Assembly (NCBI GenBank): GCA_944373145.1
Contig: CALWAL010000001.1
Location: 64,105-128,104 of the forward strand
DNA from: an uncultured Bacilli bacterium
Lineage (GTDB): Bacteria; Bacillota_I; Bacilli_A; RF39; UBA660
DNA length: 64,000 nt
Direction of reading: 5' to 3'
Shown: positions 9,977 through 59,800 of the stretch, piece by piece
Position numbering within the stretch: position 1 is the stretch's first letter
Layout of the letters: each line of letters begins with the position of its first letter
The notes under the pieces: generated by a model
What the model was told of the DNA's origin: nothing
Seen by the model: only the letters and a program-made list of their open reading frames with translations
Database searches by the model: none
Program-made: the position numbers and the translations under genes

Positions 9977-11545
9977 TTATCGACGCCCCTTTTTAATTTC
10001 TTCAACTTCCTCAATTGCTTGTTCCATATCCTCTATGTCTTCTATTTCTTCATTTAAACCGTTTATTTTTTTGCGATGTTTTAAATATTTTACAAAAGCC
10101 ACAAATGAAGTACCCATACCTGCTAATAAGGCAGTGAATTTACCAACATCTGGTAAAATTCCACTTAAACCTAAACTGCCATTACCTAATTGACTTAGTG
10201 CTGTAACACAATTTTTTGAAGCTGTAAGTGGATCAACTTTAAAAATAAGTGCTAAAACTGCAACTGGAATAAATCCTGCTCCAATTAAAAGAAGTGCTAA
10301 AGTCTTTTTCTTTTCTATTTTTTCTACTTCTTTTTCTTTTTTTATAATTTGTAAACGTCTTTGAACTAATTGTGTTGTTTCTTTATCAACCGGATCATGA
10401 GGTTCAATAAAACCATCACCATCTTTATTTAATGACGAAATATCTGGGCTCCGTGGGATTAATTCTTCAATTACTTCCTCCGATTGCGCTGGTTCCTCTA
10501 CATGTAATGTTGAACCGTTTTGATAAAGTTCTAATATCTCATCATATGGCAAATTATAAGCCGGTCTTAAAATATCAAAAGTTCTTTTCAAACATGAAAT
10601 TGGATAATGTAAATCTAAATCCTTTAATTTTTTAACTCGTTCTTCAAGGGAAATATCTTTTATCATTAAAATTTTATAAACCCTTTTTTCATCTTGCTCT
10701 AAGCGGTATAAACTATAAGCAATATCATCCACTTCATCTGCTTTTTTCATCTTATTTAAATAATCAATAATAAATGTTGAATCAAATACATCTTCATCCA
10801 TTAATTTTTGATAAATTGTATGTGCTAATTCTTGATTGTCATCAATACCTTTAAACCTTTCAATAAAAAATGGTTCATATTTTTTATAAAATAAATTAAT
10901 TACTTCATCGATGATTTCTTCATCTAATCCCGAATCATTCAATGCGTAACGTAAATGACCAAAAGATAAAAAGTTTTTTGTATAATAATTGATTAGATCG
11001 TTTGCGACACCTTCAATAATCCTATCTCGATTTGTGCTATTTACATACGAACTAAATCTTGAGGTTGCAACTGAACGATTAATAAAAATTCGATAAAATT
11101 CTTTAACTTTATTACTACTATCTAGAACGCCAGCACTTATGGCTTGTTCAACTCCATTAATAATTTCACTAAAAGGCATTTTCCCTAATTCATACAAACT
11201 TTTAGCAATCTCAAAATCACTCTTATCCTCGCTTTTAGCTTGCTTTAAACAAGCAACTATTTTACTAAGGCGTTGATTTTGCTCTTGTCTTTCTTTATCT
11301 TTTTTTCTTTCTATGGAAGCTTTAGCTGCCAATCTTTGTCGTTCCCTTGCAATAATATAATCGCATATAGCTTTAGGTTCAAATTGTCCACCAGTGGCAA
11401 TATTTAAATTAAATGACTCGGCAATTTTACGAGAAGCATCACGCGAAATCAAAATTCTCCCATCTTCAGCTTTTACAAAATCTTTTTCTGGATTTATATA
11501 TTTAAGCAAAATTTCCTTCTTTTGATCATTTGTTAAATTCATCAT
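9977..11545 (-). CDS. Hypothetical 522-aa protein with a C-terminal hydrophobic hairpin, probably membrane-anchored.
   Basis: Long ORF with a Lys/Glu-rich coiled region and C-terminal TM segments (LALLLIGAGFIPVAVLALIF ... ALLAGMGTSFVAFV). Confidence 0.5.
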   Translation of the reverse strand: MMNLTNDQKKEILLKYINPEKDFVKAEDGRILISRDASRKIAESFNLNIATGGQFEPKAICDYIIARERQRLAAKASIERKKDKERQEQNQRLSKIVACLKQAKSEDKSDFEIAKSLYELGKMPFSEIINGVEQAISAGVLDSSNKVKEFYRIFINRSVATSRFSSYVNSTNRDRIIEGVANDLINYYTKNFLSFGHLRYALNDSGLDEEIIDEVINLFYKKYEPFFIERFKGIDDNQELAHTIYQKLMDEDVFDSTFIIDYLNKMKKADEVDDIAYSLYRLEQDEKRVYKILMIKDISLEERVKKLKDLDLHYPISCLKRTFDILRPAYNLPYDEILELYQNGSTLHVEEPAQSEEVIEELIPRSPDISSLNKDGDGFIEPHDPVDKETTQLVQRRLQIIKKEKEVEKIEKKKTLALLLIGAGFIPVAVLALIFKVDPLTASKNCVTALSQLGNGSLGLSGILPDVGKFTALLAGMGTSFVAFVKYLKHRKKINGLNEEIEDIEDMEQAIEEVEEIKKGRR

Positions 11546-21897: not shown

Positions 21898-22401
21898 CTA
21901 TTCTATACTTTTAGCGTTTAAATTTTCCATCAATTCTTCTTTATACATAAGTCCAGCACGACTAAATACTACATCCCCTTCACTCATAACTAATAAAGTT
22001 GGAATAATAATTTGTGGGTTTTTATAATTCATAACATCCGTTACATCATCTATAACAATGGAATATTGTTCATCATTTAAATCTTGACGATTTAAAATAT
22101 ATACTACAGCTTCACGCTCAGAAAAAGCAATTTTAATTTCTTCTAAAAAAGTTTGACTTATTTCATCTTCTTCATTATAAATCAAAATAGCATAAGTTTC
22201 TGTTTCATATGCCTCTGAACGAAGTTCTAAATATTTGTCATAATCAATATACTCAATAGTTGCTGTTGTTGGTTTAACTTCTTCAACAGCTGGCTCTTTT
22301 TTTTCGTCATCCCGTGCTATAATCAAATATATAATACTTCCTAGTAATACAGTCGTAACAATAAAAAAGATAATTTTATTTCTTAATCTCATCTTAATCA
22401 C
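21898..22401 (-). CDS. Membrane-anchored protein with a thioredoxin-like C-terminal fold that lacks the CxxC motif.
   Basis: N-terminal TM (IIFFIVTTVLLGSIIYLII). C-terminal IIPTLLVMSEGDVVFSRAG resembles the thioredoxin PTLLxFKxGxxV region. No cysteine pair. Confidence 0.4.
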   Translation of the reverse strand: MIKMRLRNKIIFFIVTTVLLGSIIYLIIARDDEKKEPAVEEVKPTTATIEYIDYDKYLELRSEAYETETYAILIYNEEDEISQTFLEEIKIAFSEREAVVYILNRQDLNDEQYSIVIDDVTDVMNYKNPQIIIPTLLVMSEGDVVFSRAGLMYKEELMENLNAKSIE

Positions 22402-22470: not shown

Positions 22471-23463
22471 CTATTTTCCAAAGTTAAAAAATCCTTTTTT
22501 CTTTTTTGGCTTATCTTCTTTTTTTGGTTCTTCTTTAACATCGGGAAGATCAGTTATTTCTACTTCATCAACCTCTTCCTTTTTTGATTTACCTTCTTCA
22601 ATGTTAATTTCGTCTTCTACCGCTTCAAAAGCATCATCTTTTGGTTCATCAATAACCCCCGGGGCCTCAACATCTTCAAAGATTGAATCTTCATTATCTA
22701 AAATAACCATACCATTTTCATCAAATTTAACATCCACATTTTCTTCAACTGCTGTTGATCCTTCTGTTCCATCAGCTACAACAACGCCATTTTCATCGAA
22801 TTGATAATTTTTTAAAGTTTTAGACTCTTTTTTATCTTCAATTACAACACCGTTTTCATCAAAAACATAACGTGGTTCCTCAATTTTATCATTTTGATTA
22901 TTCGTTTCCTTATCGGCCACCACAATACCATTTTCATCAAATTGGTAGTTTCCTGAAGTTTTAGATTCTTTTTTATCTTCAATTACAATACCATTTTTAT
23001 CAAAAACATAACGTGGTTCCTCAACTTTATCATTTTGATTATTCGTTTCCTTATCAGATGCTACGACCTCAGAAGCTAACTTATCAGCTACTACAACACC
23101 GTTTTCATCAAATAAATATCCGCCATTTGCTTTTGGTGATAAAACAACATCAACCGTTTCATCTAACCTATTTTCATTATCAACTTCAGATTTTACGGAC
23201 TTTAACTCTACTGGTAAAGAACTAATAAAAATTTTAGACTCTTCATCTTTATATCCATAAGAATATAATTCAATAATATCGCTATGATTAAAATAATTTA
23301 TATCTTGGTTTTTGCTAAAGCCCTTTGGAAATGGCACACCAATATAATCATATCCTTGATTTTTATAACCTATAATAACTTGTTTATTATTTAAATTTTT
23401 AACAACACACACTGAGCCAAGTGGTAAAAACTTTAACTCCATAATCTCCCTCTTTTCCTTCAC
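22471..23463 (-). CDS. DUF4176-domain protein with about 6 C-terminal FDENGVV repeats.
   Basis: N-terminal FLPLGSVCVVKN...VIIGY...DYIGVPFPKG matches the DUF4176 pattern common in Firmicute T7SS loci. Repeated Y(Q/V)FDENG(V/I)V(V/I)(A/E)D units follow. Confidence 0.6.
   Translation of the reverse strand: MKEKREIMELKFLPLGSVCVVKNLNNKQVIIGYKNQGYDYIGVPFPKGFSKNQDINYFNHSDIIELYSYGYKDEESKIFISSLPVELKSVKSEVDNENRLDETVDVVLSPKANGGYLFDENGVVVADKLASEVVASDKETNNQNDKVEEPRYVFDKNGIVIEDKKESKTSGNYQFDENGIVVADKETNNQNDKIEEPRYVFDENGVVIEDKKESKTLKNYQFDENGVVVADGTEGSTAVEENVDVKFDENGMVILDNEDSIFEDVEAPGVIDEPKDDAFEAVEDEINIEEGKSKKEEVDEVEITDLPDVKEEPKKEDKPKKKKGFFNFGK
22800..23060. repeat. Intragenic tandem direct repeat: two copies of about 140 bp, roughly 90% identical.
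   Basis: Segments near 22818-22915 and 22958-23056 are near-identical (ttttagaCtcttttttatcttcaattacaa...cgtttccttatc). They encode the repeated 47-aa FDENGVV module. Confidence 0.7.
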
Positions 23464-23468
23464 GTTTT

Positions 23469-24008
23469 TTATTCTGCACTTATAACAACACCATTTTCAT
23501 CAAATTTAATATTGCTAAAAATTGGCCAATCTTTTCCTTCTTCAGTCGTTTCTTTTGATATCGATTGTTCATAGTTCATTTCTTTATGAAATGGATTATT
23601 AACTCCACCTACATCATTAGTGCTTATAACCTTCTCTTGAATTGGTTGCTCTTTTTTTTCTGTTTTAGTTGACGGTTGTGCAAAAATTACTACACCGTTT
23701 TCATCAAATTCAAAATTAGTAAAGACATTATTATTTATTGTTTTATTCTCTTGTTGACTATTTAATTTTTTGTTCAATAACTCAAAATCAGCATTTTTAT
23801 AACCCATATACTCAATTGTTAATATGTCTCCATGATTAAAACAAATACGATTTGATCCTAAAGTTCCTTCTGGATAAATACACCCTTGATAATCATATAA
23901 TTTTACTTTTTCTGTATAATCAAGTGCAAAATACCCCATAATCATGACTTTACGATTGCTCGCTTTAATTGTACATATAGAGCCAATAGGCAAAAATTTT
24001 TGATTCAT
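23469..24008 (-). CDS. DUF4176-domain protein (shorter paralog, 2 FDENGVV motifs).
   Basis: FLPIGSICTIK...VMIMGY...YQGCIYPEG N-domain. Start moved to MNQKF, which has an AGGAGA RBS. Confidence 0.6.
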   Translation of the reverse strand: MNQKFLPIGSICTIKASNRKVMIMGYFALDYTEKVKLYDYQGCIYPEGTLGSNRICFNHGDILTIEYMGYKNADFELLNKKLNSQQENKTINNNVFTNFEFDENGVVIFAQPSTKTEKKEQPIQEKVISTNDVGGVNNPFHKEMNYEQSISKETTEEGKDWPIFSNIKFDENGVVISAE

Positions 24009-24115
24009 AACATCTCTCCTACAGTTATTATAAAAATTATATCTAAAAATAATAAAAATTGCAACATATTCATTCAAATGTAACTAAAAAAAGATATAAC
24101 TTTTTAAGTTATACC

Positions 24116-24424
24116 TTAACTAACACTACTACCTCGATCTACAATCTCTTCAATAGCAATCATCGCAAGTGCACTATTAATTTCATCAATAGCTTCATCA
24201 TATTTTCTATTACTTTTATTTAACCAATCACGAATATCAATTAAATTTCTTCGCATTTGATTAATATATTGACAATATTCATTTAAATAGTTTGCATAAC
24301 GAAAATCACCAGGAATAGACATTGTATTATTAACAGAAATTAAATCTTCTAAATTGTCAATCGTTGAATCCAAACTAGGTAATACGTCTCTTGATATATC
24401 AATATTTTTAAAATTCAACTTCAT
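24116..24424 (-). CDS. Small helical T7SS-locus protein of unknown function, possibly a substrate or chaperone.
   Basis: 102 aa, predicted all-helical. Tightly packed (1-nt gap) behind the WXG100 gene. Confidence 0.4.
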   Translation of the reverse strand: MKLNFKNIDISRDVLPSLDSTIDNLEDLISVNNTMSIPGDFRYANYLNEYCQYINQMRRNLIDIRDWLNKSNRKYDEAIDEINSALAMIAIEEIVDRGSSVS

Positions 24425-24712
24425 CTAATCTCTCCTCAATGAATTTATTTCTTTTTCAAAATCATCAGCATCATCTACTAAATGTCTACCCAATTTATAA
24501 ATAGTATCCTTAAATTGAAAATATTGATTTTTTTCAGCATTAGCACGGTTAGCAAACGCTATCGATGCTTCACCAGTCCAAATCTCATGATTAGAAACAT
24601 TTGACAACTTATCAAAAAGAAGTTTAAAATCTTCATTTAGTGATAATGATAATTCCATCATACGATTACCACAATCACGCATTTTTATCGTATCAATTTT
24701 AATTTCTGCCAT
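24425..24712 (-). CDS. WXG100 family protein (EsxA-like).
   Basis: 95 aa. Central W-x-G motif (HEIWTGEASIAF). Helix-turn-helix length typical of WXG100. Confidence 0.75.
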   Translation of the reverse strand: MAEIKIDTIKMRDCGNRMMELSLSLNEDFKLLFDKLSNVSNHEIWTGEASIAFANRANAEKNQYFQFKDTIYKLGRHLVDDADDFEKEINSLRRD

Positions 24713-24766: not shown

Positions 24767-25090
24767 TTAATCTTCTTTAGCAGCTTCAGCTAAAGCCCTT
24801 TCTTCATCCTCTATAGCCCTTAAAATGCTATTAATTTTTTGATTAATTGCACTCATAACTTCTGAGGAAAGGAAGTTTTTTTTATCAATACAAGTAGTAC
24901 GCGCCTTTTTTAATTTATAATTATCGGCACTTACTTCATCAATTAGATAATAATCACTAACTTTTAAAGCTCTTTCAGAACTATCTATTACCCGCTCCAA
25001 ATGACGTATTGAATTTTGAACATCATCAGATAAATCGCGATAAGTACGTAATTGTCGATATAAACTTGAAAGGCTTGCCATTATTACCAC
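24767..25090 (-). CDS. Small helical protein (T7SS-associated, unknown function).
   Basis: 107 aa, coiled-coil-like. No WXG motif. Confidence 0.4.
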   Translation of the reverse strand: MVIMASLSSLYRQLRTYRDLSDDVQNSIRHLERVIDSSERALKVSDYYLIDEVSADNYKLKKARTTCIDKKNFLSSEVMSAINQKINSILRAIEDEERALAEAAKED

Positions 25091-25101
25091 CTAATTTCTA
25101 A

Positions 25102-25578
25102 TTATCTTTGTCTTGCGTATCTATCAACAGATTGAGATACTTCTTGACCAGCTGTATTTAAAGTATCGTTCATTGCTGCTTGTTGAGCTTCATAATTATC
25201 TTTAATTTCCATTAAAATATCGGCTAATTTTAATAATTGAGATGTGTAGGCACGACATGCATCCATTACACCACCAATATAAGCTTTACAAGCTTGTTGC
25301 ATACCTGGATCTGCAAATGCCTTACTTGGGTCTGTGTTAACATTTACTTCATTTAAATGATTTTCAATTGCTGCAACAGCACTATCAATTGCTGTTGTCA
25401 TATCGTTAATTTTATTTACATTAATTCCCACAACACTTCCTGGAATCAAAGAACCGATAGCTGCACTAGCTTGACTTTTAATACTATTAAAAGTATTTGA
25501 AATTGCATCAAGTGCATCATTAGCTCTAGCGCCAACCATAGAAGTGAATTGAAGGACCTCTGATTTAATTGTTGCCAT
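25102..25578 (-). CDS. Helical 158-aa protein, possibly EsxB/LXG-like or an atypical WXG100 relative.
   Basis: Ala/Ser/Asn-rich helical sequence. Immediately downstream of a WXG100 gene. Confidence 0.35.
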   Translation of the reverse strand: MATIKSEVLQFTSMVGARANDALDAISNTFNSIKSQASAAIGSLIPGSVVGINVNKINDMTTAIDSAVAAIENHLNEVNVNTDPSKAFADPGMQQACKAYIGGVMDACRAYTSQLLKLADILMEIKDNYEAQQAAMNDTLNTAGQEVSQSVDRYARQR

Positions 25579-25593
25579 TATTTATTCTCCTTC

Positions 25594-25926
25594 CTAAAAT
25601 ATAGATTGGCCACTAATTTCTTCAGCCATTCCAGTGTCTTCTGAATGATAAGTTTCTTCTTGAGCCGCAAGTGTAGCGTTAAAAACTTCTTCCATTTCTT
25701 GAAGTTTAGCTTTTAATGCTTCTGCTGATTCTGATAATTTAGCACAAAATGCATCGCATGCTTGTCCTTGCCATCCTTGTTGTAACGTATCCTTAATAAT
25801 TTCCGTTTGGTCTGTTATAATTCCATTTGTTTCAATAATTGCTGCTGTATTTAGCTCTGCAACATAAGCAGCTGCTCCAGTGGAACTATATCCAATAGTA
25901 ATATCCTCTATTCCTAATCCTCCCAT
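25594..25926 (-). CDS. WXG100 family protein.
   Basis: 110 aa. W-x-G motif (QQGWQGQACDAF). Helical hairpin length. Confidence 0.7.
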   Translation of the reverse strand: MGGLGIEDITIGYSSTGAAAYVAELNTAAIIETNGIITDQTEIIKDTLQQGWQGQACDAFCAKLSESAEALKAKLQEMEEVFNATLAAQEETYHSEDTGMAEEISGQSIF

Positions 25927-25939
25927 AAATTCACCTCCA

Positions 25940-26299
25940 TTAATATTTTTCCTTATATCTCTCTATGGAATTAGATAAGATCTCACCTTTAGCTATTGTA
26001 AAGTTCTTCTTTACAGTATTGTGAACACCATATATACGAGCTTTAACTTTAACTAAATCTTGAGAATAACACAAGATATTTTTATTAACAATTGGAAAAC
26101 TTTGGCGCAACTTGGCAAAAGAATTTCGAAAGTTTGTGCCACATTCACATTCATAAAAAGAAACAGTTCCGTCAACTAAATCTTCAAGTTCTAAAAATTG
26201 AGCTTTAATACGTTCTGCAATCTCTCCAATCTCTAAAACTAAATTATCTAGCTTAGGTTCATTAATTCCAAAAACTTCCTGTTGCTTCACTCTCGCCAC
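25940..26299 (-). CDS. Hypothetical 119-aa protein (T7SS-locus).
   Basis: ORF carrying a CECG motif. No recognisable family. Confidence 0.35.
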   Translation of the reverse strand: MARVKQQEVFGINEPKLDNLVLEIGEIAERIKAQFLELEDLVDGTVSFYECECGTNFRNSFAKLRQSFPIVNKNILCYSQDLVKVKARIYGVHNTVKKNFTIAKGEILSNSIERYKEKY

Positions 26300-26357: not shown

Positions 26358-28079
26358 TCAATATATTTTTTCATTTTGTTTAAGTTTAATATACTCATTA
26401 ATTGAAATCGTCTTATTGCGACTAGTTGTATCATGTTTTTCCTGGATAATTACACCCATATCATCATTTACCCAAGGTATTTCAATAGCGTCATATACTG
26501 TTTCATTTAAAATATTATTAGTCTTTATTTCCATTTTACCATTAAAAGCATTATACGCTGCTTCTATATCATCAATTGATAATCCCAATTCATTAGCTAG
26601 CACTTGGAAAAAAGCACTTTGAATATTTTGATAATAATCTAAAAATGGTTTAATAGTGTCATAACGCGATTCATCTGTATATAGAATATGTGTACTCAAT
26701 GTAGATTCAAGCGTTGATATAAGTTCAAAAACATCTTCTAATTTAACCGATTGACTAGACATCTTACTAATTAAATTATCGTAAAAAGTTCTACTGAAAT
26801 ATTTAGATAAACCTACTTTTAATTCAATTTTTAATTGAACTAATTCCTCATCGCTCATTTCATGTCCTAAGATTTCTTTTTCATACAAACTCATAAAATC
26901 ATTAGGTTCTACTTGAATAATATTAATTGCATATAACACTTTTAAAAGTTCCATTTTCTCTTCTTCTGTATTACAATTAAAAGCCTCGAATAATTTAGAA
27001 ACATCATTTTGAACAGAAATTTGTTCTAATGAATTAACATCAAAATTATCATTTAAGCCATGAACAAATTTCAAAGTGTTTAAGTAACTTATATAATTAG
27101 CGTACGTCGTTGGATCGCTATCGTGTAATTTAGCAGCTAAATTTTCGGCAGCCGCTTCCTCAAACCACCTATTGTAAAGCGAATTTACTTCTAAATCATC
27201 AAATTCATAACAAAAACCATAAGCGGATTTAACGCCTACTTGATCACGATGTTCTGTAGATAATCGTTGAAATAGATGTACTGTCTCGTGGGATAATGTT
27301 ATTAATCCTGCATTTTCATTATTACTGATTGACACCATCATATCTAAATTAGATGGCATAACTGTCATGCAACCATCATCAGTAATTGAAGCATTGGCTC
27401 CTGTCGCTGATTTAAACATACATAAATGTTGAAGATTATAGCTTAAATCTTCTAAATTATAATCCCAACCTTTATTCAACATATCATTTACTGTATCAGC
27501 AATTACTTGGCAATATTCGGCGATATAATTTTTGTCTAGTTCAGTATAAATAGAATATGGATTTTTATCTTTATAAGCTACATTATTTTTTATTACTAAA
27601 TCATATAACTGTTGAGCATCAACATACCCATTAGCCATGATGGGTTGAATAATTCCATCATAAGCAGGAATTTGTAAATATCTTTGATATGCTGTTTCAA
27701 CATCATATAAATCACTATAAGCATAATCAATAGGAATTTGTATAATTTCATTAATTAGCTGTTCAGAAGCACTGTTTGATATGGTTACGCTACTATCAAT
27801 AATGGTTTGATTATAATCATCTATTTCCTTTATCTCATAATCTTCTAGCATTTTTTCAATTTCTAATTCCAAATCGCTTTTTTCTTCCACTACTTCTACA
27901 TAAGTAGGCTGATTAACTTGCGTTTCTGTATTATGCTTAGGGACAATACTGCATGCTGTAAATAATGTTGAAATTGTTAGTGCACCAGTAATAATATATA
28001 ATTTAAATTTATTTTTTTTCGTTCTTTTTTTAGTTTCTTTTCTCTTCAATCTTTCAAATACTTTTAAATTTTTTAACAT
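26358..28079 (-). CDS. Lipoprotein with an HExxH zinc-metallopeptidase-like motif.
   Basis: Lipobox LFTAC after a basic N-terminus. LSHETVHLFQ (HExxH) with a downstream EEAAAE. Confidence 0.5.
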   Translation of the reverse strand: MLKNLKVFERLKRKETKKRTKKNKFKLYIITGALTISTLFTACSIVPKHNTETQVNQPTYVEVVEEKSDLELEIEKMLEDYEIKEIDDYNQTIIDSSVTISNSASEQLINEIIQIPIDYAYSDLYDVETAYQRYLQIPAYDGIIQPIMANGYVDAQQLYDLVIKNNVAYKDKNPYSIYTELDKNYIAEYCQVIADTVNDMLNKGWDYNLEDLSYNLQHLCMFKSATGANASITDDGCMTVMPSNLDMMVSISNNENAGLITLSHETVHLFQRLSTEHRDQVGVKSAYGFCYEFDDLEVNSLYNRWFEEAAAENLAAKLHDSDPTTYANYISYLNTLKFVHGLNDNFDVNSLEQISVQNDVSKLFEAFNCNTEEEKMELLKVLYAINIIQVEPNDFMSLYEKEILGHEMSDEELVQLKIELKVGLSKYFSRTFYDNLISKMSSQSVKLEDVFELISTLESTLSTHILYTDESRYDTIKPFLDYYQNIQSAFFQVLANELGLSIDDIEAAYNAFNGKMEIKTNNILNETVYDAIEIPWVNDDMGVIIQEKHDTTSRNKTISINEYIKLKQNEKIY

Positions 28080-28112
28080 GACAACTCTCCTATCTAAAAA
28101 TATTATATCATC

Positions 28113-28148
28113 AAAAAAAAGAAGCGCAAAATAAATTTACACTTCTTT
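28113..28148 (-). terminator. Rho-independent terminator after the esaB-like gene.
   Basis: AAGAAGTG-loop-CGCTTCTT hairpin followed by T8 on the minus strand. Confidence 0.55.
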
Positions 28149-28401
28149 ACAATAGCACTACACTCGTACCATTACGAATATTTGTATCACGTACCAACGT
28201 ATCAATAGGATAAATTTCACCGTTATTTCGGTCATATAAGTAAGTACGATTAGTTCCTATAAAAGAGCCATTTGTTATTTCATATAAAGATTTATTTAAA
28301 AGATTAATAATATTTCCTATTTTACGATTAACTGGGAAGTAAACATTATAAGTTTGATCAATAGCTGGAACAATTAGTTCTACTAAAACTTTATTTTTCA
28401 T
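28147..28401 (-). CDS. esaB: YukD/EsaB-like ubiquitin-fold T7SS protein.
   Basis: About 84 aa (MKNKVLVELIV...YNVYFP...NGTSVVLL), matching the YukD beta-grasp pattern. GGAGG RBS. The start overlaps the essC stop. Confidence 0.7.
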   Translation of the reverse strand: MKNKVLVELIVPAIDQTYNVYFPVNRKIGNIINLLNKSLYEITNGSFIGTNRTYLYDRNNGEIYPIDTLVRDTNIRNGTSVVLL

Positions 28402-31400
28402 CGTTTCCCTCCTCCACATCTTCAACCATATAACGAATTGTTGTATGTTTTCCACGACTAATAGCAAATCCCATATAAGGGAAATTAGTTTTTCCATCTT
28501 CAGCTGTTATAGTTGATGTATTAATAGCTAATTGCGTTGCAACTCCTTCATCTAACCAAATACCATAAGCTGTATCAATATTAGTTTGATACCAAGGTTC
28601 TGTTTGTAATATTTTGTAAGCTGAATAGCTATCAAAGAAAACATAATAACTATTATTAATAACCGATGAATTGTTAAAAAGACTATTTAAAACGACTCGA
28701 CCATTTGCTGATAATTTTACTTTCATCTCTGATATACCAATAAATATATTTAAAGTTCTTACTTCTTTATCCTTAGCTTTAATAATATCATTATTTAACT
28801 TAATTATTTCACTATCATAGTTATTTTGAATATAATTCACATTGTCAATTCTTTTACTTAAAATGGCTGCAAAATCAATAACATTAATTTTTAAATTATC
28901 AATAAGTGATACCATTTTAATAAAAGTACTTAAGAAACTAAATTTATTATCATCAAATTTATTAAACAAAATAGGAATAAACTTGCTAGCCGTTAAATCA
29001 TAAGCATATGGAGTTTTAGATTCAACTGCATAGCCAATTGGAACATTTGTTAAATCATTTAAGTTATCTTTAACAGAACTAAAATAAACAACTTCTGGTA
29101 CCATTGGAATTTTTTTAGCTCGTACATTATAAGCTTGACTCAACTTTTTAGCTGTATCACGAACCAAATTATTTATTTCTTTTTTTGTTGTAATCAAGGC
29201 TGTTTGAAATTCATATGCCTTACTATCTTTAGCAACTAAACCACGTCCAAAATATTTAGTTGGTAATTGTCCTTTGATAGCACCAACTAAATTACGATAT
29301 TCTGTTTCATTTGGAATTTGCAGACATAATTTATGGCTAAAATTTTGCAACATTCTTAATTTAACTGTACTAGTTGAAATAGACGTAATGATAAATGATA
29401 TTCCATATTTATTGCCATCACGATAAAATGTTTGAATTGATTCAGCTACTCGAGCATAATTTTCTGAAAATATTTCATAATTGTTAATGATAGTAACTAT
29501 TAAAGGTAATTTATTACCGCTATTTTCAATATATTCTTTATAACTACCGCCATAATCAGCCATTAATTCTTTACGACGTTCAATTTCCTCATCAATCATC
29601 ATTAAAATACCCAAAATTTTATCTTGTTCTTCAGTCGTAGCAATTTCTCCTATATGTGGCATTTTATTGAAAGTTTTTAAAGCCTCCGAACCACAGTCAA
29701 TAACATAAAAATTAATCTCATCTGGTGTATGTTCCAAAGAAGCTGACCACAAAATAGTCTGAACAAGATTTTCTTTACCAGCACCAGGTTGTCCCCAAAT
29801 AATAGCATTACCGTTCATTAAATCTAAAGTTAAAATACCTTGTTCTTGTTGTGATGGATTATCATATTCACCAATAACAGGATTAATATGATATGGCGTT
29901 GGTTTATAATGATATTTTTTCTTAATCTCATCTACAAATATTTCTTCTGGAATAGGATCTAGCCAAAGCGTACTTGTCTTCAAATTTTCTTTTTTACCTA
30001 AGTTATAAATATATTTAACGATATTTGTTAATTGATCCCCATAATTAGTATTATCTGTTTCAATTTTAATTAAATCTTTAATGCTTTTTGTAACATTTCC
30101 AACATTATCTATAAAATCTATTGAATCATCAATTTTCTTAATTACTCGATCAGATGGAACATATTTTGCCCCAGCCCATCCTGATTGACCTTTAGCAAAA
30201 TAATCATCATAACCAACTTGCAAATAAAAGCGCCCTGTTTCTTTAATACTAGCCGCTTCTGGGCGTTTTAACATTTCCATACTATCAGCTCGATCTTGAA
30301 CTTTTAAGCATACTTTAAATTTTGAATTACTCCAAATTTGATCATTAACTACACCACTAGGTTTTTGTGTTGCCAAAATAAGATGTACTCCTAATGAACG
30401 ACCGATACGAGCCGTTTGAATCAATTGTTGCATGAATTCAGGTTGTTGGCTTTTTAACTCGGCAAATTCATCACTAATAATAAATAAATGTGCCATTGGC
30501 TCTTTTACTTGACCTTCACGATATAACCGTTGATATTTATAAATGTCGATGGTTGATTCACCTAAAACATCACGAGTTTCATTAAAAATACGTTGCCGTC
30601 TTTTTAATTCTGACTCAATTGAAACTAAAGTTCTATTCATTGAAGCTGTATCTAGATTAGTAATCGTCCCAGCTAAATGAGGAATACGAACACCTAACTC
30701 CTTATTTTCAAATGCTCCAGCCAAGCCACCACCTTTATAGTCAATAAGAACGAATTGTACTTCATATGGATGATAATTAACACACATTGATAAAATATAT
30801 GTAATAATAAATTCTGACTTACCACTACCAGTTGAGCCAGCAATTAAACCATGTGGTCCATGAAATTTTTCGTGAAGATTTAATTTAAACTGTTCACCAC
30901 TTGCGTGAACACCAATCGTTGTATTTAAACTGTTAACAGGATTATTAGTCTGCCAACGATTTAAAACATTTAATTGTTCAATTTTAGAAACATTAAGCAT
31001 TTCCAAAAATGAAATAGAGTTAGGCAAAACGGATATTCCTTCTTTACTTAATAAAGGAATATTATTAACTTTTTGACAAAGATATTCCATATCAGCATTG
31101 TCCAAATATTCTGTTTTAAAAACAATCTGATTACTAGAATTTATATTACTCTCTAAAATACAACCTTCATTATCACCTATCTCAATGAATGACTCGCATT
31201 TAGCCGGTAAATTCTTCATTGTACTTGAAAAAATAGCAATACTAAATCCATAATTGGTATCAGCATATTTCAAAATATTACTAATGATTGGAGCTTCATC
31301 ACTACTCTTATAATCATCGCAAATAATTAAATAATATGGTAAAAAGTTTTTATATTCATCAGTTTTTTTTATGTCTTCAGCTTCACTTTTATCTTTTACT

Positions 31401-33007
31401 TTATTTTCTAATAAATCTTTACGAGTTTTAAATTCACTCTCCAAAAAAGATGAAACTTCTTTTATTTCTTCTGCATTCGTAGCAAAAAAGCGTAAACTTT
31501 TGTCATCATTAAAACAGTATGGTGAATACTTTAAATAGTTCCAACGCGATTGATTTTTTTCATTAGTTAAAATAACTATTTTTAGATCGCCACCACTATG
31601 AAGCGCTAAAAGTTGAACCATCAAACCATTAATATAATCGTTTTTACGATTAGCACTACAAATAAAGGCTGAAATTTTTTTATCGATCAAAGAAATATTA
31701 ATAGGAACATCGACTAATTTTTTATGACGATCGACAATTGTATAAACTCGTTTTAATAAATCATCATCATCTAAAGTAAACTTTTCCTTAGGTGCCACAA
31801 TATGCAATGGAGTGTTAACACTTCCTAATCCTAAGCGCAATTTCAAAAAATCATCATCAGATATGTTCCTTCCCCAAAAATTACGATTATTAACAGAGTT
31901 TATAACGTTAACGCAACCATTAGCGGTTAAACTGTTATCGCGCATAATTTGGGCCTGTTTTTTCATAATCATTATAATTTTTTCTTCTTTTTCATCTAAA
32001 TAATCGTTGTATTTACGAATGCGAAGTTCTTCTCTTTCTGCTCTTTTCTTTTTATGGTAAGCTGATGCCATTTTAGGAATAATTAAACTTCCAACAATCA
32101 TTGCAATACATAAGACAATTTGCGGCAAAGCCGACATGATGGTTCTTGTCCCTGTCATCAATCCGTAACCAACATTATATCCCATAACAAGTGAAGAGGC
32201 TCCCATCGTAATACTACTACCGATTGTCAACCAAAACGGTGTATCTTCTTCTTTTTCGGAAGCTGGTGGAGCATCTATTTCCAATTCTTCTTCTTCAACT
32301 ACTTCTCTAATTCTTGGTGTATGAAAAAAATAATCATCGTCGTCATATAAATCCATTGATTGCTGTTCATCACTAACTGGAGTATATTCTTGATTAGTTT
32401 GAGCAGGTTGATAAGTATAAGCATTCAAGCCTGCCACTGTTACCAATTTATTTGGATTATTAATTTGAATAAAATGTTGCATCCAAACAATTTTTAAACC
32501 TTTAATAAAAATTGTATCTCCGGCATGTAAAACTGCTTTTGTAACGCGATTGCCATTTAAATAAGTAGCATCATTAGCGTTTATAAACCAATTTTGACCT
32601 TCATATGTAATAAGTGCATGACTAGATGCAATGTTATTATTATGGTAACAAATATTGCAATTATTTTCTTTACCTATTAAAAGTTGTTTTAGGCCTTTAA
32701 ATTCTAATTTATAAGTTTCAACCTCAACAGTAGGTAGTGCATATAATACAATATTTTCTTGGCTAGAAACAACTTTCAAGTCATAAGAACCATAATCAAT
32801 TAAAGATGCTTCGTCCGAAAATGTAGAATTGTTTACAACATCAACACTACCATTGCTTTTAATTTTCCACTTACCTTGATCAGCTTCAAACGATAAAATA
32901 CAATCTTTACCCTTGCTCGTTTTATGGTTAACAACGAAAGAATCTTCAATCTTTGAAGGCAATTCATATTTAAATATTTTATCTTCTTCAACTAAAAATA
33001 TTCGCAT
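28391..33007 (-). CDS. essC: Type VII secretion FtsK/SpoIIIE-family ATPase EssC.
   Basis: About 1538 aa. N-terminal tandem FHA-like region. TM segments (ITMGASSLVMGY..., IVLCIAMIVGSLIIP). Three P-loop domains (GSTGSGKSE; GQPGAGKEN; a third degenerate). Start set at the ATG with 8-nt spacing from AGGAG. Confidence 0.88.
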   Translation of the reverse strand: MRIFLVEEDKIFKYELPSKIEDSFVVNHKTSKGKDCILSFEADQGKWKIKSNGSVDVVNNSTFSDEASLIDYGSYDLKVVSSQENIVLYALPTVEVETYKLEFKGLKQLLIGKENNCNICYHNNNIASSHALITYEGQNWFINANDATYLNGNRVTKAVLHAGDTIFIKGLKIVWMQHFIQINNPNKLVTVAGLNAYTYQPAQTNQEYTPVSDEQQSMDLYDDDDYFFHTPRIREVVEEEELEIDAPPASEKEEDTPFWLTIGSSITMGASSLVMGYNVGYGLMTGTRTIMSALPQIVLCIAMIVGSLIIPKMASAYHKKKRAEREELRIRKYNDYLDEKEEKIIMIMKKQAQIMRDNSLTANGCVNVINSVNNRNFWGRNISDDDFLKLRLGLGSVNTPLHIVAPKEKFTLDDDDLLKRVYTIVDRHKKLVDVPINISLIDKKISAFICSANRKNDYINGLMVQLLALHSGGDLKIVILTNEKNQSRWNYLKYSPYCFNDDKSLRFFATNAEEIKEVSSFLESEFKTRKDLLENKVKDKSEAEDIKKTDEYKNFLPYYLIICDDYKSSDEAPIISNILKYADTNYGFSIAIFSSTMKNLPAKCESFIEIGDNEGCILESNINSSNQIVFKTEYLDNADMEYLCQKVNNIPLLSKEGISVLPNSISFLEMLNVSKIEQLNVLNRWQTNNPVNSLNTTIGVHASGEQFKLNLHEKFHGPHGLIAGSTGSGKSEFIITYILSMCVNYHPYEVQFVLIDYKGGGLAGAFENKELGVRIPHLAGTITNLDTASMNRTLVSIESELKRRQRIFNETRDVLGESTIDIYKYQRLYREGQVKEPMAHLFIISDEFAELKSQQPEFMQQLIQTARIGRSLGVHLILATQKPSGVVNDQIWSNSKFKVCLKVQDRADSMEMLKRPEAASIKETGRFYLQVGYDDYFAKGQSGWAGAKYVPSDRVIKKIDDSIDFIDNVGNVTKSIKDLIKIETDNTNYGDQLTNIVKYIYNLGKKENLKTSTLWLDPIPEEIFVDEIKKKYHYKPTPYHINPVIGEYDNPSQQEQGILTLDLMNGNAIIWGQPGAGKENLVQTILWSASLEHTPDEINFYVIDCGSEALKTFNKMPHIGEIATTEEQDKILGILMMIDEEIERRKELMADYGGSYKEYIENSGNKLPLIVTIINNYEIFSENYARVAESIQTFYRDGNKYGISFIITSISTSTVKLRMLQNFSHKLCLQIPNETEYRNLVGAIKGQLPTKYFGRGLVAKDSKAYEFQTALITTKKEINNLVRDTAKKLSQAYNVRAKKIPMVPEVVYFSSVKDNLNDLTNVPIGYAVESKTPYAYDLTASKFIPILFNKFDDNKFSFLSTFIKMVSLIDNLKINVIDFAAILSKRIDNVNYIQNNYDSEIIKLNNDIIKAKDKEVRTLNIFIGISEMKVKLSANGRVVLNSLFNNSSVINNSYYVFFDSYSAYKILQTEPWYQTNIDTAYGIWLDEGVATQLAINTSTITAEDGKTNFPYMGFAISRGKHTTIRYMVEDVEEGNDEK

Positions 33008-33118
33008 ACACACAACTCCTACTATTCTTCTATTATATATAACATATTATATCGAACTTTTTGGACTTTTACAATACATTATTCTTGCGGCAAAAACTAT
33101 TTAATGATATAGTAATTA

Positions 33119-53024: not shown

Positions 53025-53391
53025 CTTCTACCTCCTTTAACTCACTAGGTAATTTATATAATTCATCAACCATATTTTTAGCAAATATATCACCTTCAAA
53101 GTGTTGATAATTCCTATAAATTTCACTAATATTATCTTTCATATAATTAGGACAGTATCCTAATTCCATATATTTTTCATATATTCTAATAATTTCATTT
53201 TTTAGTAATGCTTTTAAGCCATTTTTTAAACTCATATAACCTTTTAACATATAAGCTACACTAGAACTTATAATTGTAAAAAGTATCTCTAACCAATACT
53301 TTAAAATAAACTCAATCATATATATCACCTCTTCAAGATAAAAATGGAGATATCGCTTGATATCTCCGAAATAAAACCTAAAAATTTTCAT
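52978..53391 (-). CDS. Small membrane protein of phage-lysis-cassette type (XhlA/BhlA-like?). The true start is probably the internal MIEFILKY.
   Basis: N-terminal TM (WLEILFTIISSSVAYML) followed by a charged helical tail. Sits directly upstream of the holin-like gene. Confidence 0.35.
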   Translation of the reverse strand: MKIFRFYFGDIKRYLHFYLEEVIYMIEFILKYWLEILFTIISSSVAYMLKGYMSLKNGLKALLKNEIIRIYEKYMELGYCPNYMKDNISEIYRNYQHFEGDIFAKNMVDELYKLPSELKEVEDVKENIERQVTWQSA

Positions 53392-53821
53392 CTATGATGT
53401 ATATAAAATTACTATTATATGGCCATAAAATATGCAATCGATCTCGCCCATTATTAGCAGTTTCATAATAATATAAGCATTTTTCATCTATTCGTGGAAT
53501 ATTTTTTTCTAAATTTAACTCATTCATAAATATTTCATTCAATAAAACTTTTTTTTCTTCTTCAATATACCTCCATTCAAGTTTTAGAAGTTCTTTCTTC
53601 TTATTGTCGTCAGCATATTCATAAACACTATACTTAGTATAATCAGAAAAATAAAATTTCTCCTGATAATATATTACATAGTCAGGCACCGGAATCTTAA
53701 CTTCATACTTTATTTTCATTTTTTCATAATGGCTTAGCATATGATTATTATCAACAGATACGAATAAAATACTAAGACAAATCATAACTAAAACAAATAT
53801 TAAAAAAAGAAATTTTTTCAT
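53378..53821 (-). CDS. Candidate Rhs-toxin immunity protein (membrane-anchored or secreted, 147 aa).
   Basis: Located immediately 3' of the Rhs toxin gene. N-terminal signal/TM (FLFLIFVLVMICLSILFV). Confidence 0.45.
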   Translation of the reverse strand: MKKFLFLIFVLVMICLSILFVSVDNNHMLSHYEKMKIKYEVKIPVPDYVIYYQEKFYFSDYTKYSVYEYADDNKKKELLKLEWRYIEEEKKVLLNEIFMNELNLEKNIPRIDEKCLYYYETANNGRDRLHILWPYNSNFIYIIDENF

Positions 53822-53842: not shown

Positions 53843-56800
53843 TTACCATTCATAATTGCATTTGCTAACATCACCAATAATATAAATTGAAAAATCGGTT
53901 TCCCAATAATATGGGGTTAAAATACCCATATCTTGCCACATATACCCCAAATTATTAGCAAATCCAGAAAAAGTACTATCATCTCGCCATTCATCAAAAT
54001 CATATGTATCATATACCTTAACATCAATAAACCAAACATCTTCACACTTTTCTGATTGATAACCATATATTTCAAAATTTGCTTTTCCAACCCCGTTTTT
54101 CAAATTAGATGTTGAAGAAAAATTTTTACTTGAAACAACAGTAAATTTGCCATTTTTACTGTTTTTGATGCCCTTGCTTATTTCTTCATTTATCTCTTTA
54201 GAACTTCCTAACTCGTTGGTTAACTCAATATAAATATCAGTCGACAATTTTTTTCCTTTTCCTTTGGCTGAATGATTCAACATTTTACTAGCTAATTCAA
54301 CCTTTTCAAATTTAGATAAAAAATAATTTCCTATTTTTATTGCTAATTTAGTCAACCATCTAATTCCAAAACCATTTTTATCTATGTTATTAATATAGTC
54401 GTTGCTACAATAAGCATATAAATTTAGGCTCATTATATCTTGATTAGAGGCCATAATACCATCTGCGTTTAAAAATCTACCAAATGTAGTACTGTAATAT
54501 CTACTATTTAAATAATATAAGTTAGTTTCATTATCATAATAGTAACTCCTATATCTAAATGGATTTATAATACCTATATGATTACTATCTGTGATATCAT
54601 TACCATTACTATCTTTAATAGATAATATGTTTCCCCAACTGTCATATCGATATTTAACTATTAAATTACAATTACTATCCAATATTCCTATAATATCTTT
54701 TTGTATATTTTTAACATAATAGTACACATCATTATTATATTTAAAACCTATCAAATCGTCCATACTATTACGTATATAGTATATCACATTATTATTTCTT
54801 TTTTCAAATATAATTGATGTTCCCTCAAGATAATATTCGGTTTTTACTCCATTTACTGTTTTACCAATTCTAATACCATTACTATTATATTTGTAAGTGT
54901 TATTATTATAACTATTTAATTGTCTACCATTTATCCATGTTAATGTATTATTTCCAATTGTTAATGGATTACCTATATCATCATAGGAAATTGTTAAATC
55001 ATTAAATTTAGTTAACTGATCTTTCCAATTAGAATTATTGTACTCATATTTATCTTCTAATTTAATATCATAATTATTCATATCTAGTACTTTTCTATTT
55101 AAGATATTTCCAAATTTATCATAGGTATATTTGATAATTTCTTTATCAATATAATTATTCTCTTCAATTAATTGATTATATTTATCATATCTATACTCAT
55201 TTTCCAAAATGTTATTATGATATATATGTGTGATATTATTTAACTTATCATACTTATATTTATAAATATCATTATTATTTTTTATACTATCGATTAATAA
55301 AGATGTTCTATTACCATTTGTTAAATATGTGTATGTTGTATTAAAAACATTGCTAATATTTCTATTTATTAATCTTCCTAATGAATCATAATTATAATTA
55401 ATACTATTATTATCAAATTCAGTTTTTACAATTGCATCTTCTTTATTTAAAATATTAGTAATACTATTCTGAACGTTATCTAAACTGTGTTCTTTACCGA
55501 TTACATTATCGCAAGTATCATAAATATATTTTACTTCAAATTCATTAAATTTATATAAATTTAATTTTTGTGACAAATCATACGCATATTTATAAATATC
55601 ACTATTAGTTTCTAATTTAACTAGATTACCTTGATTATCATAACTATATTTATATGTATCATTTGATTTAATTATTGTTTTAACTCTATCGAAATTATCA
55701 TATGCATAACTAATAATATGACCATTACCATATGTAGAAGATATCAGATTACCGTTATTTTCTTCATAATGGTTTGTAACTAAAGTAATATTATCTCCAA
55801 TTTTAATTTCTTTAATGTTTAAAAATTCATCATAAACAAAATTATATTCTTTATCATCATCTTTTATTTTAGATAATACATTATTAGAATTATAGGTATA
55901 ATTTATTTTTTTATCACCTTGATTAATTTCAATAACTCTCTTTTTATCATCATAAGTGTAAGAGGTTACTTTTCCTTTAGGATTAGTTATTGAATTTAGT
56001 AATCCAGTCAGTAAATCAATATCATATGTCATTTTGTTTAAATTAGAATCTGTTACACTTTTTATAAATTTACTATCTTCAGTGTATTCAGCACTACTTT
56101 CAATAAATTCATTTTCTATAGTTTCAATGTAAAATTCAAAATTTGGATCCTGTTCTATTAACTCTGATATAAATAGAATATTATTTTCTCTTTTAATATA
56201 TCTAGGCAAATTACTTTCAACTGTATCATTTTCATCGCGATATAATTGGAAATAATAGCTTCCATTTTCTTGCTCTATTAATTTAAATAGTGAATTATTT
56301 AAATTATTTGGAGCTAATACAATCTGATTAGATGTAGCAGTAAAATAATTATCGCCTATTACATTATGATTAATTGTATAATAGCCATTTTCTAATAAGG
56401 TAAATTGCCATAAATCATGATTACACTCCTCATCATCAAAAACAATTGCTTTATTGATATTTTTTAAATAATCATTAGTTCCTTTACATCTAATACGATA
56501 TAAACCATTAGTTATTTCATTTGGAATTTTGTTAACAATTTTAGTAATAATCGGATTGCCAAAACTATCATACTTAATGGTATTATTAATTCCAGTTTCT
56601 GAGATTCCATTTAAAATACGTTCTGACTTTAAATTATCATATTCGTATTTTAAATTTTTTCCTTGCGGATCAGTCATTTTGATCAATTGATTGTTTGAAT
56701 CATATTTAAAATTACTTGTCTCATTTGATAAATTTGATATTGTTGATACGTTACCATTTCCATCATAATTATAATTGATTTCTCTAGGATCTTTAAACAT

Positions 56801-59800
56801 ACAAATATTTGTAATATACATATCGTTAAAATTTAAAGCTTGATTAAATTCTAATGTTATACCATCATAATCTAGCATAGCTACAAAAGTGTAACGATAA
56901 TATTGCCATTCTTCGCATTTAGAATTAATTTTATCTGGCATAAGTATTCCTGTACCCAAATCAGATTCTTCAATGTAATTAAATCCTACACTTACACTAT
57001 TTTGAATACTATCGTATAAATCAATACCTGTTATACCTTCATTTTTATACCAAAAAGATACTTCATAAACATCTCCTGTTTTCCCTTTAATTGGAAAGAT
57101 TTTAGAAATTGTTGAATTCTTAGTCGGTGCCATTGATATTTTAAGTGCTTTATCATCATTATCATTAATTGACACAACATTAAAACATTCACTATTATCA
57201 ATAGTTGTAATTTCAGAGTCCTCTGTTGGGCCACTAGGACTTAATTCACTATATTCACTAGCACTTAATGTCCAATCAGAATATCCTAAAGAAAAGTCGG
57301 AATTAGATAGCATATTATAATTATTTACTATCTCTCCTTCTTCTAATTGAATATCATCAATATAAAAAGTTGTGCTGTCAGGTAATATAAATCTTATTTT
57401 TAAACTAGAGATTGCTTCTTCAGGATAAAAGATAGTTATATCGTGTCGTTTAAATTCATCAGATGCTTTAATAATTTCTTCTTTTACTACACTATCATAT
57501 GATAATGATAATGTTATATTTTGATTATTTTTAATATAAGCACTGAAAGTATAATATTTACCCTTTGATACATTTACTTCTTGATAAAAATTAGAAGTTG
57601 CTTTTAAACTTTTTAAACCATTATTTACATATTCTGTAGATAATGTTAATTCATTTTCTTCTGTTATAAAATTAATTGTATTTTCTTCAAAACTTGTATT
57701 AGATAGTAAATTATTAACATACTTAATTGGCATATATGAGTCAATTACTTTATTTTTATATGGATTGCTTGAATCAACTACTTCAGTCTCCAAATATCTA
57801 TTAGCTATAGAATAAGCACCTTTTAAATTAGTACTATCAATTAGACTACTACTAGATATTAAATTACCATTATTATTAAAAGTCATTGTTTGAACTCTAT
57901 TTTTATTATCTTTAATAGTTGTTGTATTATACGAATATGTCATGTCAAATGATTGACCTAAAGTATCATTAATACTATACTCTGATACTTTTTTAATACG
58001 ATATGGTATTTGATCATAATATTCATATTTTATCTTTAATCCATTAATATCTGTAATATACTCAATTAAAGAATTAGAATTATATGTGAACATAGTTTGT
58101 CCTAATAAATTAGTAATATTAACTAATTTATTATTTTCATGATTTAACGTTACTGTTTCATCGGTACTCACTATAACAATACTATTTTCATTATAAATTA
58201 TATTAATTTCTGAATTATTAGGATCAATTACTTTAGTAATTCTATTGTTATCATCATAAATAACTTGTATTACTTTATTTTCGGTATCAGTAATAATTGA
58301 TAAGTACCCTATATCATTAATAATATTAAACGATGATATATTACCATATTTATCTATCATATTATATTTAGATTCTGCTTTAGTAATTGTTAAATTTAAA
58401 CCATCTTCATCAATATAATTACCTGTCGACTTATCATTTTCATCTAATTGTTCTTGAAAATAGTGAATAGTCCCATCGGCATCTATATATTTTAAATAAT
58501 TTATTTCCTCAGTAGTTTCGCCTTCCTCGGGTATTTGAATTAGTTGATGGTAATTAAATTTATATCCCTTACCAACTCCATAATCATTATCCAAAATAAC
58601 ATCATTAGTGTTATAAATTAAATTCAAACTTACAGTATTCTTTTCGGCGACAGTTCTTCCAATCTGAAATTGCCCTACTAAATTACCATTATAAGTATTA
58701 ATATTAGTATCTCCGATAGAATAACTTTGAGGTATATAATTCATATAACTTTCTAAGCCATTTTGATTTCGATAATGAATTATAAGTGTAGGAGCTAAAG
58801 ATTCATTAACATTAGAAAAAAACGCAGGGTATAATTCATCTTCATATTCTTCATTATGTGATTTTACCATCAATCCATAGTTAGGAGTACCTGAATACCA
58901 TTTTTTAACTAAATTCGTTATATCCATTTCAAGACTTCTTAATTCAACTATTTCATAAGTATTATCCCTAATAATCCAAGCACTTCTAGCTGAATATGAA
59001 TAGTTTTCTAATTTAGGATCATATTTATTGTTCATTATAGTCCAGTTTGCTGTATTCTCATTCCAATCTTGCGTTAGTCTATGAACATCAACTACATTCC
59101 AATCTATTTTTTCCAATGCTAGTGGCCCATCTCCATAATTATATAAGTTTAAGTATGACTTGATAATTTGACTTCCTGTTCCTATAGTTGGCAAATCAAA
59201 TTTTATTAAAGTTCTATTAATTATATCTTGATTATTAATTCGCTCAACACCAGCTTTTAATATATTTTGACTATTTTTATCTTTTCCTGTATCTCCTGGA
59301 TAAATATAAGTGTCATACACTTTACCTTCTTGAGTTGTATTTGTAATTATCGGATCTATGATAACTGGATATGAAGTAAGATTTAACCATTCTTCATCAA
59401 GTACTAAATCTAATAGATATCCTACTTCATTTTGTATCAAATTATAATGAATATTATAATTAATATTTTGATTATTATCTATCATGAACAATGGTTCAAA
59501 AGTAAATATACATTTATCGTTTTCTTTTGCATCTATTTTTTTATCATTAACTACTAAGTTTAAATTAGTTTTAATCAAGAAACTAATTTTATCAATATTA
59601 TTATTTTTTAAAATAATATTTTCTTTTACTTTAGTAGGTAATAATGAATATTCTAAATCAATGCCAGGTAAGATATCTTCATAAATTACTTTTTTATCTA
59701 AAAATTTACCTTTAACATTATTTTGATCGTTTAACTTAATTTCTAAAAAATAGTCATCTTTAATCATTTTCATAAGAAGTAGATTAGTATTTTCCATAAA

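Follow-up and report, generated by a model that had tools for sequence, protein, structure and literature searches.

A membrane-anchored HExxH protein as a probable component of a reduced type VII secretion cassette in uncultured gut Bacilli

Within a 64-kb stretch of DNA from an uncultured Bacilli bacterium (contig CALWAL010000001.1, positions 64,105 to 128,104; this whole stretch is referred to as the window, and all coordinates below are given in it), a type VII secretion system (T7SS) cassette encodes a membrane-anchored HExxH protein of 573 amino acids (aa) that kept its position in the cassettes of 11 lineages. The corresponding open reading frame (ORF; 26358..28079), which an initial annotation of the same DNA had singled out, proved to be real, and checking placed it on the minus strand, with the ATG start at 28079 and the stop at 26358. 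Its product, for which X is used here as shorthand, is probably an extracytoplasmic, membrane-tethered gluzincin that serves as a dedicated component of a reduced T7SS cassette. The description of X draws on the ORF and its translation, on a family of 438 representatives and on an AlphaFold model.

The HETVH motif occupies residues 264–268 of X (nucleotides 27276–27290) and forms part of the longer HETVHLFQ (HExxHxxQ; residues 264–271, 27267..27290, minus strand), which lies on a predicted helix spanning residues 257–271. Further downstream, the block WFEEAAAE (residues 305–312, 27144..27167, minus strand) falls on a second predicted helix (residues 304–318) and includes E308, the candidate third zinc ligand. 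Conservation was assessed in an alignment of 148 family representatives, each from a separate 50%-identity cluster (i.e. more than 50% different). H264, E265, H268 and E458 were conserved in 100% of these sequences and E308, G288, Y326, Y433 and N165 in 99%, followed by W305 (96%) and by Q271, A311 and E312 (95% each). The family signature can accordingly be written as HExxHxxQ, about 36 residues, and then W-x-x-E-[AG]-x-A-E. While a lone HExxH is expected by chance in about 2% of cases for a protein the size of X (arithmetic from residue frequencies), an invariant HExxH together with the W..E..AE block in 148 diverged representatives is far beyond chance. The latter block resembles the 'WLNEGFA' motif of M1 peptidases, which carries the third zinc ligand in those enzymes. 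The distance from HExxH to E308 in X is nevertheless 40 residues, compared with 18 in M1 / Peptidase_MA_2, and no Pfam M1 or Peptidase_MA_2 match was listed at E ≤10 for X or for 38 family members.

The AlphaFold model of X, built from 10 sequences, reached a predicted local distance difference test score (pLDDT) of 81.8 and a predicted template modelling score (pTM) of 0.81. It depicted residues 1–65 as a helix plus linker of low confidence, and residues 66–573 as a mainly helical globule. Around the motif, three short strands (residues 220–240) were followed by a backing helix (242–252) and the HExxH helix (257–271), after which a short helix and a hairpin led to the helix (304–318) bearing E308 and E312. 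As modelled, this order of elements is the minimal zincin/gluzincin arrangement, and we conclude that X is predicted to hold a zincin-like catalytic core inside an otherwise unmatched architecture. A Foldseek comparison of the model with the PDB returned only noise (best E 0.04, terpene synthases). The zincin-like HETVH...E arrangement proposed in the initial annotation agrees with these results, as HExxH lies on a helix, the 99% conserved E308 follows downstream and the zincin core elements appear in the model, with the ligands as candidates. Structure prediction, its suggested route to both fold and family, brought out the zincin-like core elements but no known family.

The family of X turned out to be sizeable. 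An exhaustive profile search covering 1.84 billion cluster representatives yielded 438 representatives at E ≤1e-3, 324 of them at E ≤1e-30, with lengths of about 540–600 aa and nearly all of those listed being full length. A word-indexed protein search recovered 13 relatives only, and the same 13 were found with a profile of 38 sequences. When X and 38 family members were compared with Pfam, NCBIfam and PHROGs, no family was assigned and only scattered chance matches appeared (RecG_N, SprT-like, Aspzincin). Likewise, the PDB sequence set gave no match to X, either as single sequence or as family profile. Judged from these sequence comparisons, the X family is absent from the curated libraries searched and is without a solved relative. 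Its members came from metagenome assemblies and metagenome-assembled genomes, two of which were labelled 'uncultured Bacilli bacterium' (rabbit gut) and one a 'Roseburia sp.' bin. One 786-aa sequence from an ENA contig (P0002) was considered as a fusion of X with a capsid-like domain; it was 99% identical from about residue 75 of X onward and phage-capsid-like (PF25209) in its N-terminal 286 residues, and was judged to be an assembly chimera.

Genomic contexts were obtained for 16 lineages and comprised 64 kb of the window genome and about 20 kb per related locus. This sampling is small because the locus scans with alignment A1 returned few loci (three from genomes and one from metagenomes). 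Eleven of the 16 lineages shared one cassette (window, L001-3/L013, L004-5, L011, L012, L015-16, L017, L018-19, L020 and L023), in the fixed order EssC, an 84–85-aa ubiquitin-like (Ubl) protein overlapping the end of essC, a hairpin, X, six small proteins, and one or two DUF4176 proteins. Identity to the window proteins fell jointly across these lineages, from 75% to 53% for EssC and from 54% to 30% for X. The genes flanking the cassette varied (SufCD with a P-type ATPase, FtsH-FemAB-MurJ, PRPP synthetase, or a HAD-like gene), and because the outside genes differ between loci in this manner the cassette behaves as a unit. X itself occupied this position in all orthologous cassettes examined (11 lineages, identity down to about 30%, differing flanks), so that its retention in orthologous T7SS loci, which the initial annotation had left to a comparison of related genomes, is now documented. 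One of these cassettes, that of L023, lies on the JGI contig Ga0074193_1000001 (834 kb, GC content 0.26).

In the window, the cassette starts with the FtsK/SpoIIIE-type EssC ATPase of about 1540 aa (28391..33013, minus strand), which scored 951 bits against TIGR03928 (cutoff 778) and matched Bacillus subtilis YukB (9qks) at E 1e-117; weak FHA-type matches were present in this EssC and in its orthologues. The start of the following gene (28147..28401, minus strand) overlaps the end of essC and encodes the 84-aa Ubl protein, the equivalent of EsaB/YukD/TsxB. Although this protein had no Pfam or NCBIfam match, its AlphaFold model (pLDDT 93.8) displayed a beta-grasp fold whose best Foldseek match was the EccD5 Ubl domain of the ESX-5 complex (7np7_D, E 3e-6), with the EccD1 Ubl domain and ubiquitins among the other top matches. 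Downstream of X, likewise on the minus strand, lie the genes of the six small helical proteins. The first (119 aa, 25940..26299) had syntenic orthologues in 7 loci and no family match, and the second (110 aa, 25594..25926) is WXG100-like with a WQG motif, although at sub-threshold level (Pfam WXG100 E 0.0027, TIGR03930 E 0.0014). The third (158 aa, 25102..25578) has a syntenic counterpart in L018 with a weak WXG100 match, and the fourth (107 aa, 24767..25090) is followed by a fifth that is again WXG100-like (95 aa, 24425..24712; WTG motif, TIGR03930 E 0.00044, sub-threshold) and by a sixth (102 aa, 24116..24424). All six were orthologous position by position across the cassettes, with weak WXG100 similarity in two or three only. 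The effector regions of canonical T7SSb loci, by contrast, are variable.

The cassette closes with a DUF4176 protein (23469..24077, minus strand; PF13780 E 1.4e-18), likewise with orthologues in the related cassettes, and a second, 330-aa DUF4176 protein (22471..23463, minus strand; PF13780 E 2.5e-16). Both have long C-terminal tails with the motif [YK]FDENG[VI]V, as FDENGVV in the former and as about six copies of FDENG[VI]V in the latter, and the DUF4176 orthologue of L020 had a MORN_2 repeat match. A 167-aa protein at 21898–22401 was considered as a further part of the cassette and rejected, as it is not conserved in related loci. GC content was uniform, at about 0.29, throughout the cassette and the DNA around it.

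Directly after the stop codon of the 84-aa gene, and thus between this gene and X, the minus strand carries a terminator-like hairpin of 13 pairs with a T-run (28118–28148). This is followed by a TATAAT –10-like element (28102–28107) and a GGAGAG ribosome-binding site (28085–28090); read as AGGAGA, the site lies 6–7 nt 5′ of the X start codon. A hairpin with a T-rich tract was found at the same site in all 11 cassettes, usually (i.e. in most of the 11) followed by a TATAAT-like element, and the stem sequences varied, implying compensatory change. These observations support the presence of a conserved terminator or attenuator in the intergenic region, with a promoter behind it and X opening a second unit, in keeping with the earlier placement of X as the first gene of the WXG100 unit after the essC-esaB terminator. 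This suggests in turn that the ATPase unit is regulated separately from the unit encoding X and the WXG proteins.

The N-terminus of X begins with the basic tail MLKNLKVFERLKRKETKKRTKKNKFK (residues 1–26, 28002..28079, minus strand), which contains 13 Lys/Arg residues and the motif MxKNLK[VI][YF]. It continues into the hydrophobic segment LYIITGALTISTLFTA, ending at Cys43 (residues 27–43, 27951..28001, minus strand). Because 13 Lys/Arg residues precede the hydrophobic segment, the positive-inside rule places the bulk of X outside the cell. The sequence LFTAC at Cys43 had been described as a classic lipobox. As a lipobox we took [LVI][ASTVI][GAS]C with its Cys some 15–35 residues from the N-terminus, preceded by a short basic n-region and then an h-region; by this measure LFTAC is lipobox-like but not classic, with F at –3 and Cys43 following a 26-residue basic n-region. 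A lipobox-like motif was present in 97 of the 148 family members. The T7SS-linked member P0130/L020 had no Cys in the N-terminal residues examined and, as far as its sequence can tell, appears to have an uncleaved membrane anchor instead of a lipobox.

The tail correlated with T7SS linkage. A basic tail of 17–30 residues, opening with M-x-K-N-L-K-[VI]-[YF] or a close variant, was present in all 11 T7SS-linked proteins (window, L001, L004, L011, L012, L013, L015, L017, L018, L020 and L023), and in the family at large a long tail was found in 86 of the 148 representatives. By comparison, four of the five unlinked lineages had a short, ordinary signal-peptide n-region and the fifth (P0013) had an intermediate tail. 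For P0130 (long tail) and P0106 (short tail), the context was predicted from the tail in advance, and the prediction held in both cases when the loci were inspected. Because the motif is conserved on the cytoplasmic side of the anchor, the N-terminus would seem to be functional in T7SS-linked X proteins. The conserved tail also suggests an uncleaved signal anchor, which it fits better than a lipoprotein signal that is removed, and it might dock on EssC or on the Ubl protein.

Five lineages of the family were without T7SS context. P0043 (L014) was neighboured by an RHS-repeat/DUF2963 protein, a methyltransferase and a MatE transporter, and P0006, P0007 and P0008 (the last being L007) by a resolvase, lipoproteins, a 78-aa membrane protein and a zinc-ribbon protein. 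P0013 was isolated, and P0106 (L021/L022) lay next to a TubZ-like Tubulin_2 protein and an integrase. Searching viral contigs with this mobile-element-associated member as query found nothing. Together, these contexts hint at a separate role for the unlinked branch.

EsaA, EssA and EssB gave no family match (Pfam or NCBIfam) in the cassette proteins or in the roughly 30 largest ORFs of the window, and none of the three turned up among the genes called in the DNA flanking 10 related cassettes. Among the cassette proteins, membrane segments were seen by eye in the sequences of EssC and X only. X was considered as a divergent EsaA or EssB and rejected, since it has no structural or sequence similarity to either. 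A 522-aa protein (9977–11545, minus strand) was likewise rejected as a hidden EssB, given its C-terminal membrane segments, its distance of 15 kb and the lack of a Pfam or NCBIfam match. Its cytoplasmic part is long, charged and helical, and its gene sits between dnaJ and the gene for the CCA-adding enzyme.

The T7SSa–j classification, which is based on RefSeq and names eight new subtypes (Garrett, Higginson and Palmer 2024; PMC11217815), defines subtypes by kinase, phosphatase, vWA, DUF6382-FHA, Ig-like, DUF5050 and EspG-like components. The variant components are the TsxD kinase, the TsxF PPM phosphatase, TscE (vWA), TsxJ (DUF6382-FHA), the Ig-like giant protein TsxI, TsgL (DUF5050) and the EspG-like TsxG (PMC11217815). 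Neither the cassette proteins nor the genes called at the related loci showed any of the variant-specific domains of T7SSc–j, and the cassette fits no subtype of this classification (PMC11217815). The words 'peptidase', 'lipoprotein' and 'DUF4176' are absent from the main text of that paper, in which a protease is named only for T7SSa, namely MycP (PMC11217815). This bears out the earlier remark that a protein such as X is not a standard T7SS component. Literature searches returned no earlier description of a T7SS with an HExxH protein or of EssC with a metallopeptidase.

The mechanism that we infer for X as a dedicated gluzincin of the cassette involves zinc binding, proteolysis and contact with EssC. 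H264 and H268 of HETVH together with E308 would serve as zinc ligands, with E265 as the catalytic base. The basic 26-residue N-tail would stay cytoplasmic and, together with the hydrophobic anchor, tether X beside EssC, so that the catalytic domain of about 510 residues would be exposed on the outer side of the membrane. There, X would cleave or trim its substrates, proteins emerging from the EssC channel, or release them, and could possibly stabilise the EssC assembly, a role comparable to that of MycP in the actinobacterial T7SSa.

Several points weigh against this mechanism. EssB, EsaA or EssA could be encoded elsewhere, outside the regions covered. Processing of the lipobox by signal peptidase II, should it occur, would remove the conserved N-tail, in conflict with tethering. 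The candidate assignment of H264, H268 and E308 as ligands comes from conservation and predicted helices rather than from coordinates. Finally, the family also occurs outside T7SS loci, and the fold is thus not intrinsically part of a T7SS.

A more far-reaching version can be put forward only tentatively, and we regard it as the less likely one. The entire membrane apparatus of a hitherto undescribed T7SS subtype, belonging to uncultured, AT-rich gut Bacilli, might consist of EssC, the 84-aa Ubl protein and X, with the zinc protease replacing EsaA, EssA and EssB. The MxKNLK[VI][YF] tail would then dock on EssC, for example on its FHA domains, and the outer catalytic domain would be required to mature or release the six WXG100-like proteins. 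Such a T7SS would be the first in Bacillota to depend on a protease, and a convergent counterpart of the MycP-containing system. In T7SSb, it is the EssB pseudokinase that docks on the EssC FHA domains.

Two alternatives to a protease acting on T7SS proteins start from the same location of X and are both unlikely in our estimation. According to the first, X is a cell-wall remodelling enzyme that locally cuts peptidoglycan peptide stems or wall proteins, so that the T7SS could span the thick wall or export across it, in the way that the hydrolase EssH serves the S. aureus T7SSb. Such a function would suit the extracytoplasmic location and membrane tether of X and its fixed place in a T7SS cassette, and the organism is walled: the window encodes PBP1 and a LysM/CW_7 protein, and FemAB/MurJ are found beside related cassettes. 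A wall hydrolase dedicated to a T7SSb moreover has a precedent (PMC13059805). However, peptidoglycan is not a typical target of HExxH gluzincins, and X is without a wall-binding module.

According to the second, of similarly low probability, X acts chiefly as a structural partner of EssC in the membrane and functionally takes the place of EsaA, EssA and EssB, with protease activity being irrelevant to secretion. X is indeed the only other membrane-anchored protein seen in a cassette in which these three were not found, and its T7SS-specific cytoplasmic N-tail suggests docking. Nevertheless, X is structurally unlike EsaA or EssB, and the residues of the catalytic motif are 99–100% conserved in the 148 members, T7SS-linked ones included, which points to selection for catalysis or, failing that, for metal binding. 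A structural role is in any case compatible with, and not exclusive of, the gluzincin function proposed above; for MycP, it is reportedly the protein and not its catalysis that is required for complex stability.

It is quite improbable that X is an unrelated surface protease, acting on nutrient peptides or degrading host proteins, that became a T7SS neighbour by chance in one lineage. The five family lineages outside T7SS context and the promoter-like element that X has to itself after the terminator could be read in this way, but X was retained between the 84-aa gene and the WXG-like genes in 11 lineages, at identities as low as about 30% and amid four flank types. Moreover, the divergence of X broadly follows that of EssC, and the linked members share an N-tail without counterpart in the unlinked ones. 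Finally, membrane-anchored, lipoprotein-type immunity proteins do exist in T7SSb loci, but X is most improbable as a TipC- or TsaI-type immunity or anti-toxin lipoprotein, given that immunity genes are variable and lie beside toxins, whereas X has no adjacent toxin gene, is single-copy at a fixed position in the conserved core and carries an invariant catalytic motif.

Elsewhere in the window, and likewise on the minus strand, a 391-aa protein with a phage baseplate Gp10_C-like domain (60016–61191) is encoded ahead of a 2050-aa RHS-repeat protein (53843–59995), behind which comes a 147-aa protein of possible immunity function (53378–53821). The GC content of this region is lower (0.24 versus 0.29), and we regard it as a candidate polymorphic toxin module. 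In other Bacillota, RHS toxins are known to be substrates of T7SSs.

The architecture of T7SSs in Bacillota is still being mapped, and RefSeq-based surveys miss the uncultured gut Bacilli that carry the X cassette. In this cassette, EssC appears to have none of its three canonical T7SSb membrane partners, and a conserved, predicted membrane-tethered zinc protease is present instead. If X is a true component of the machine, a further T7SS subtype would be defined, with the first protease component of a Bacillota T7SS as a convergent analogue of MycP. The system would also be unusually small (EssC, the Ubl protein and one anchor protein) and thereby suited to studying the minimal needs of a T7SS. 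Apart from secretion, X represents a sizeable zincin-like family (438 or more clusters at 50% identity) to which neither Pfam nor NCBIfam offers a match and for which no structure has been solved.

Among known metallopeptidases, the systems closest to X include the gluzincins of clan MA(E), i.e. M1 aminopeptidases, thermolysin (M4), M30, M48 and the minigluzincins. DUF4157 is a small domain of about 80 aa within toxins, whereas X is a stand-alone membrane protein of 573 aa. The PVC-metallopeptidase/DUF4157 domain of polymorphic toxins has an HExxHxxQ...E signature and a core of three strands and three helices (Zhang et al. 2012; PMC3482391), to which HETVHLFQ followed by E308 in X bears a likeness. 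DUF4157 gave no match for X and was not listed for any of 38 family members (Pfam, E ≤10), and the resemblance may serve as a lead only.

EssH of the Staphylococcus aureus T7SSb is a CHAP-domain peptidoglycan hydrolase that is secreted and not anchored, and that is not an HExxH protein. It parallels X as an extracytoplasmic hydrolase that aids a Bacillota T7SS (PMC13059805). The cassette as a whole shares a T7SSb-type EssC, a TsxB/EsaB-like Ubl protein, WXG100-like proteins and DUF4176 with the canonical T7SSb (S. aureus Ess, B. subtilis Yuk) and with T7SSc–j. It differs from the canonical T7SSb in having no detected EsaA, EssA or EssB, and in having an anchored zincin-like protein and six conserved small helical proteins. 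MycP has been proposed to process substrates and to stabilise the secretion machine. It is listed as a core component of T7SSa (PMC11217815). X would resemble it as an extracytoplasmic protease with a single membrane anchor, encoded by a conserved cluster gene beside the EccC/EssC ATPase. MycP is nonetheless a subtilisin-like serine protease (S8) with a C-terminal anchor, and X, in which a Pfam scan found no match to the S8 subtilisin domain, is a predicted HExxH zincin with an N-terminal anchor. As X and MycP are not homologous, the two would be analogous, pointing to the independent recruitment of a membrane-anchored protease to the T7SS in Bacillota.

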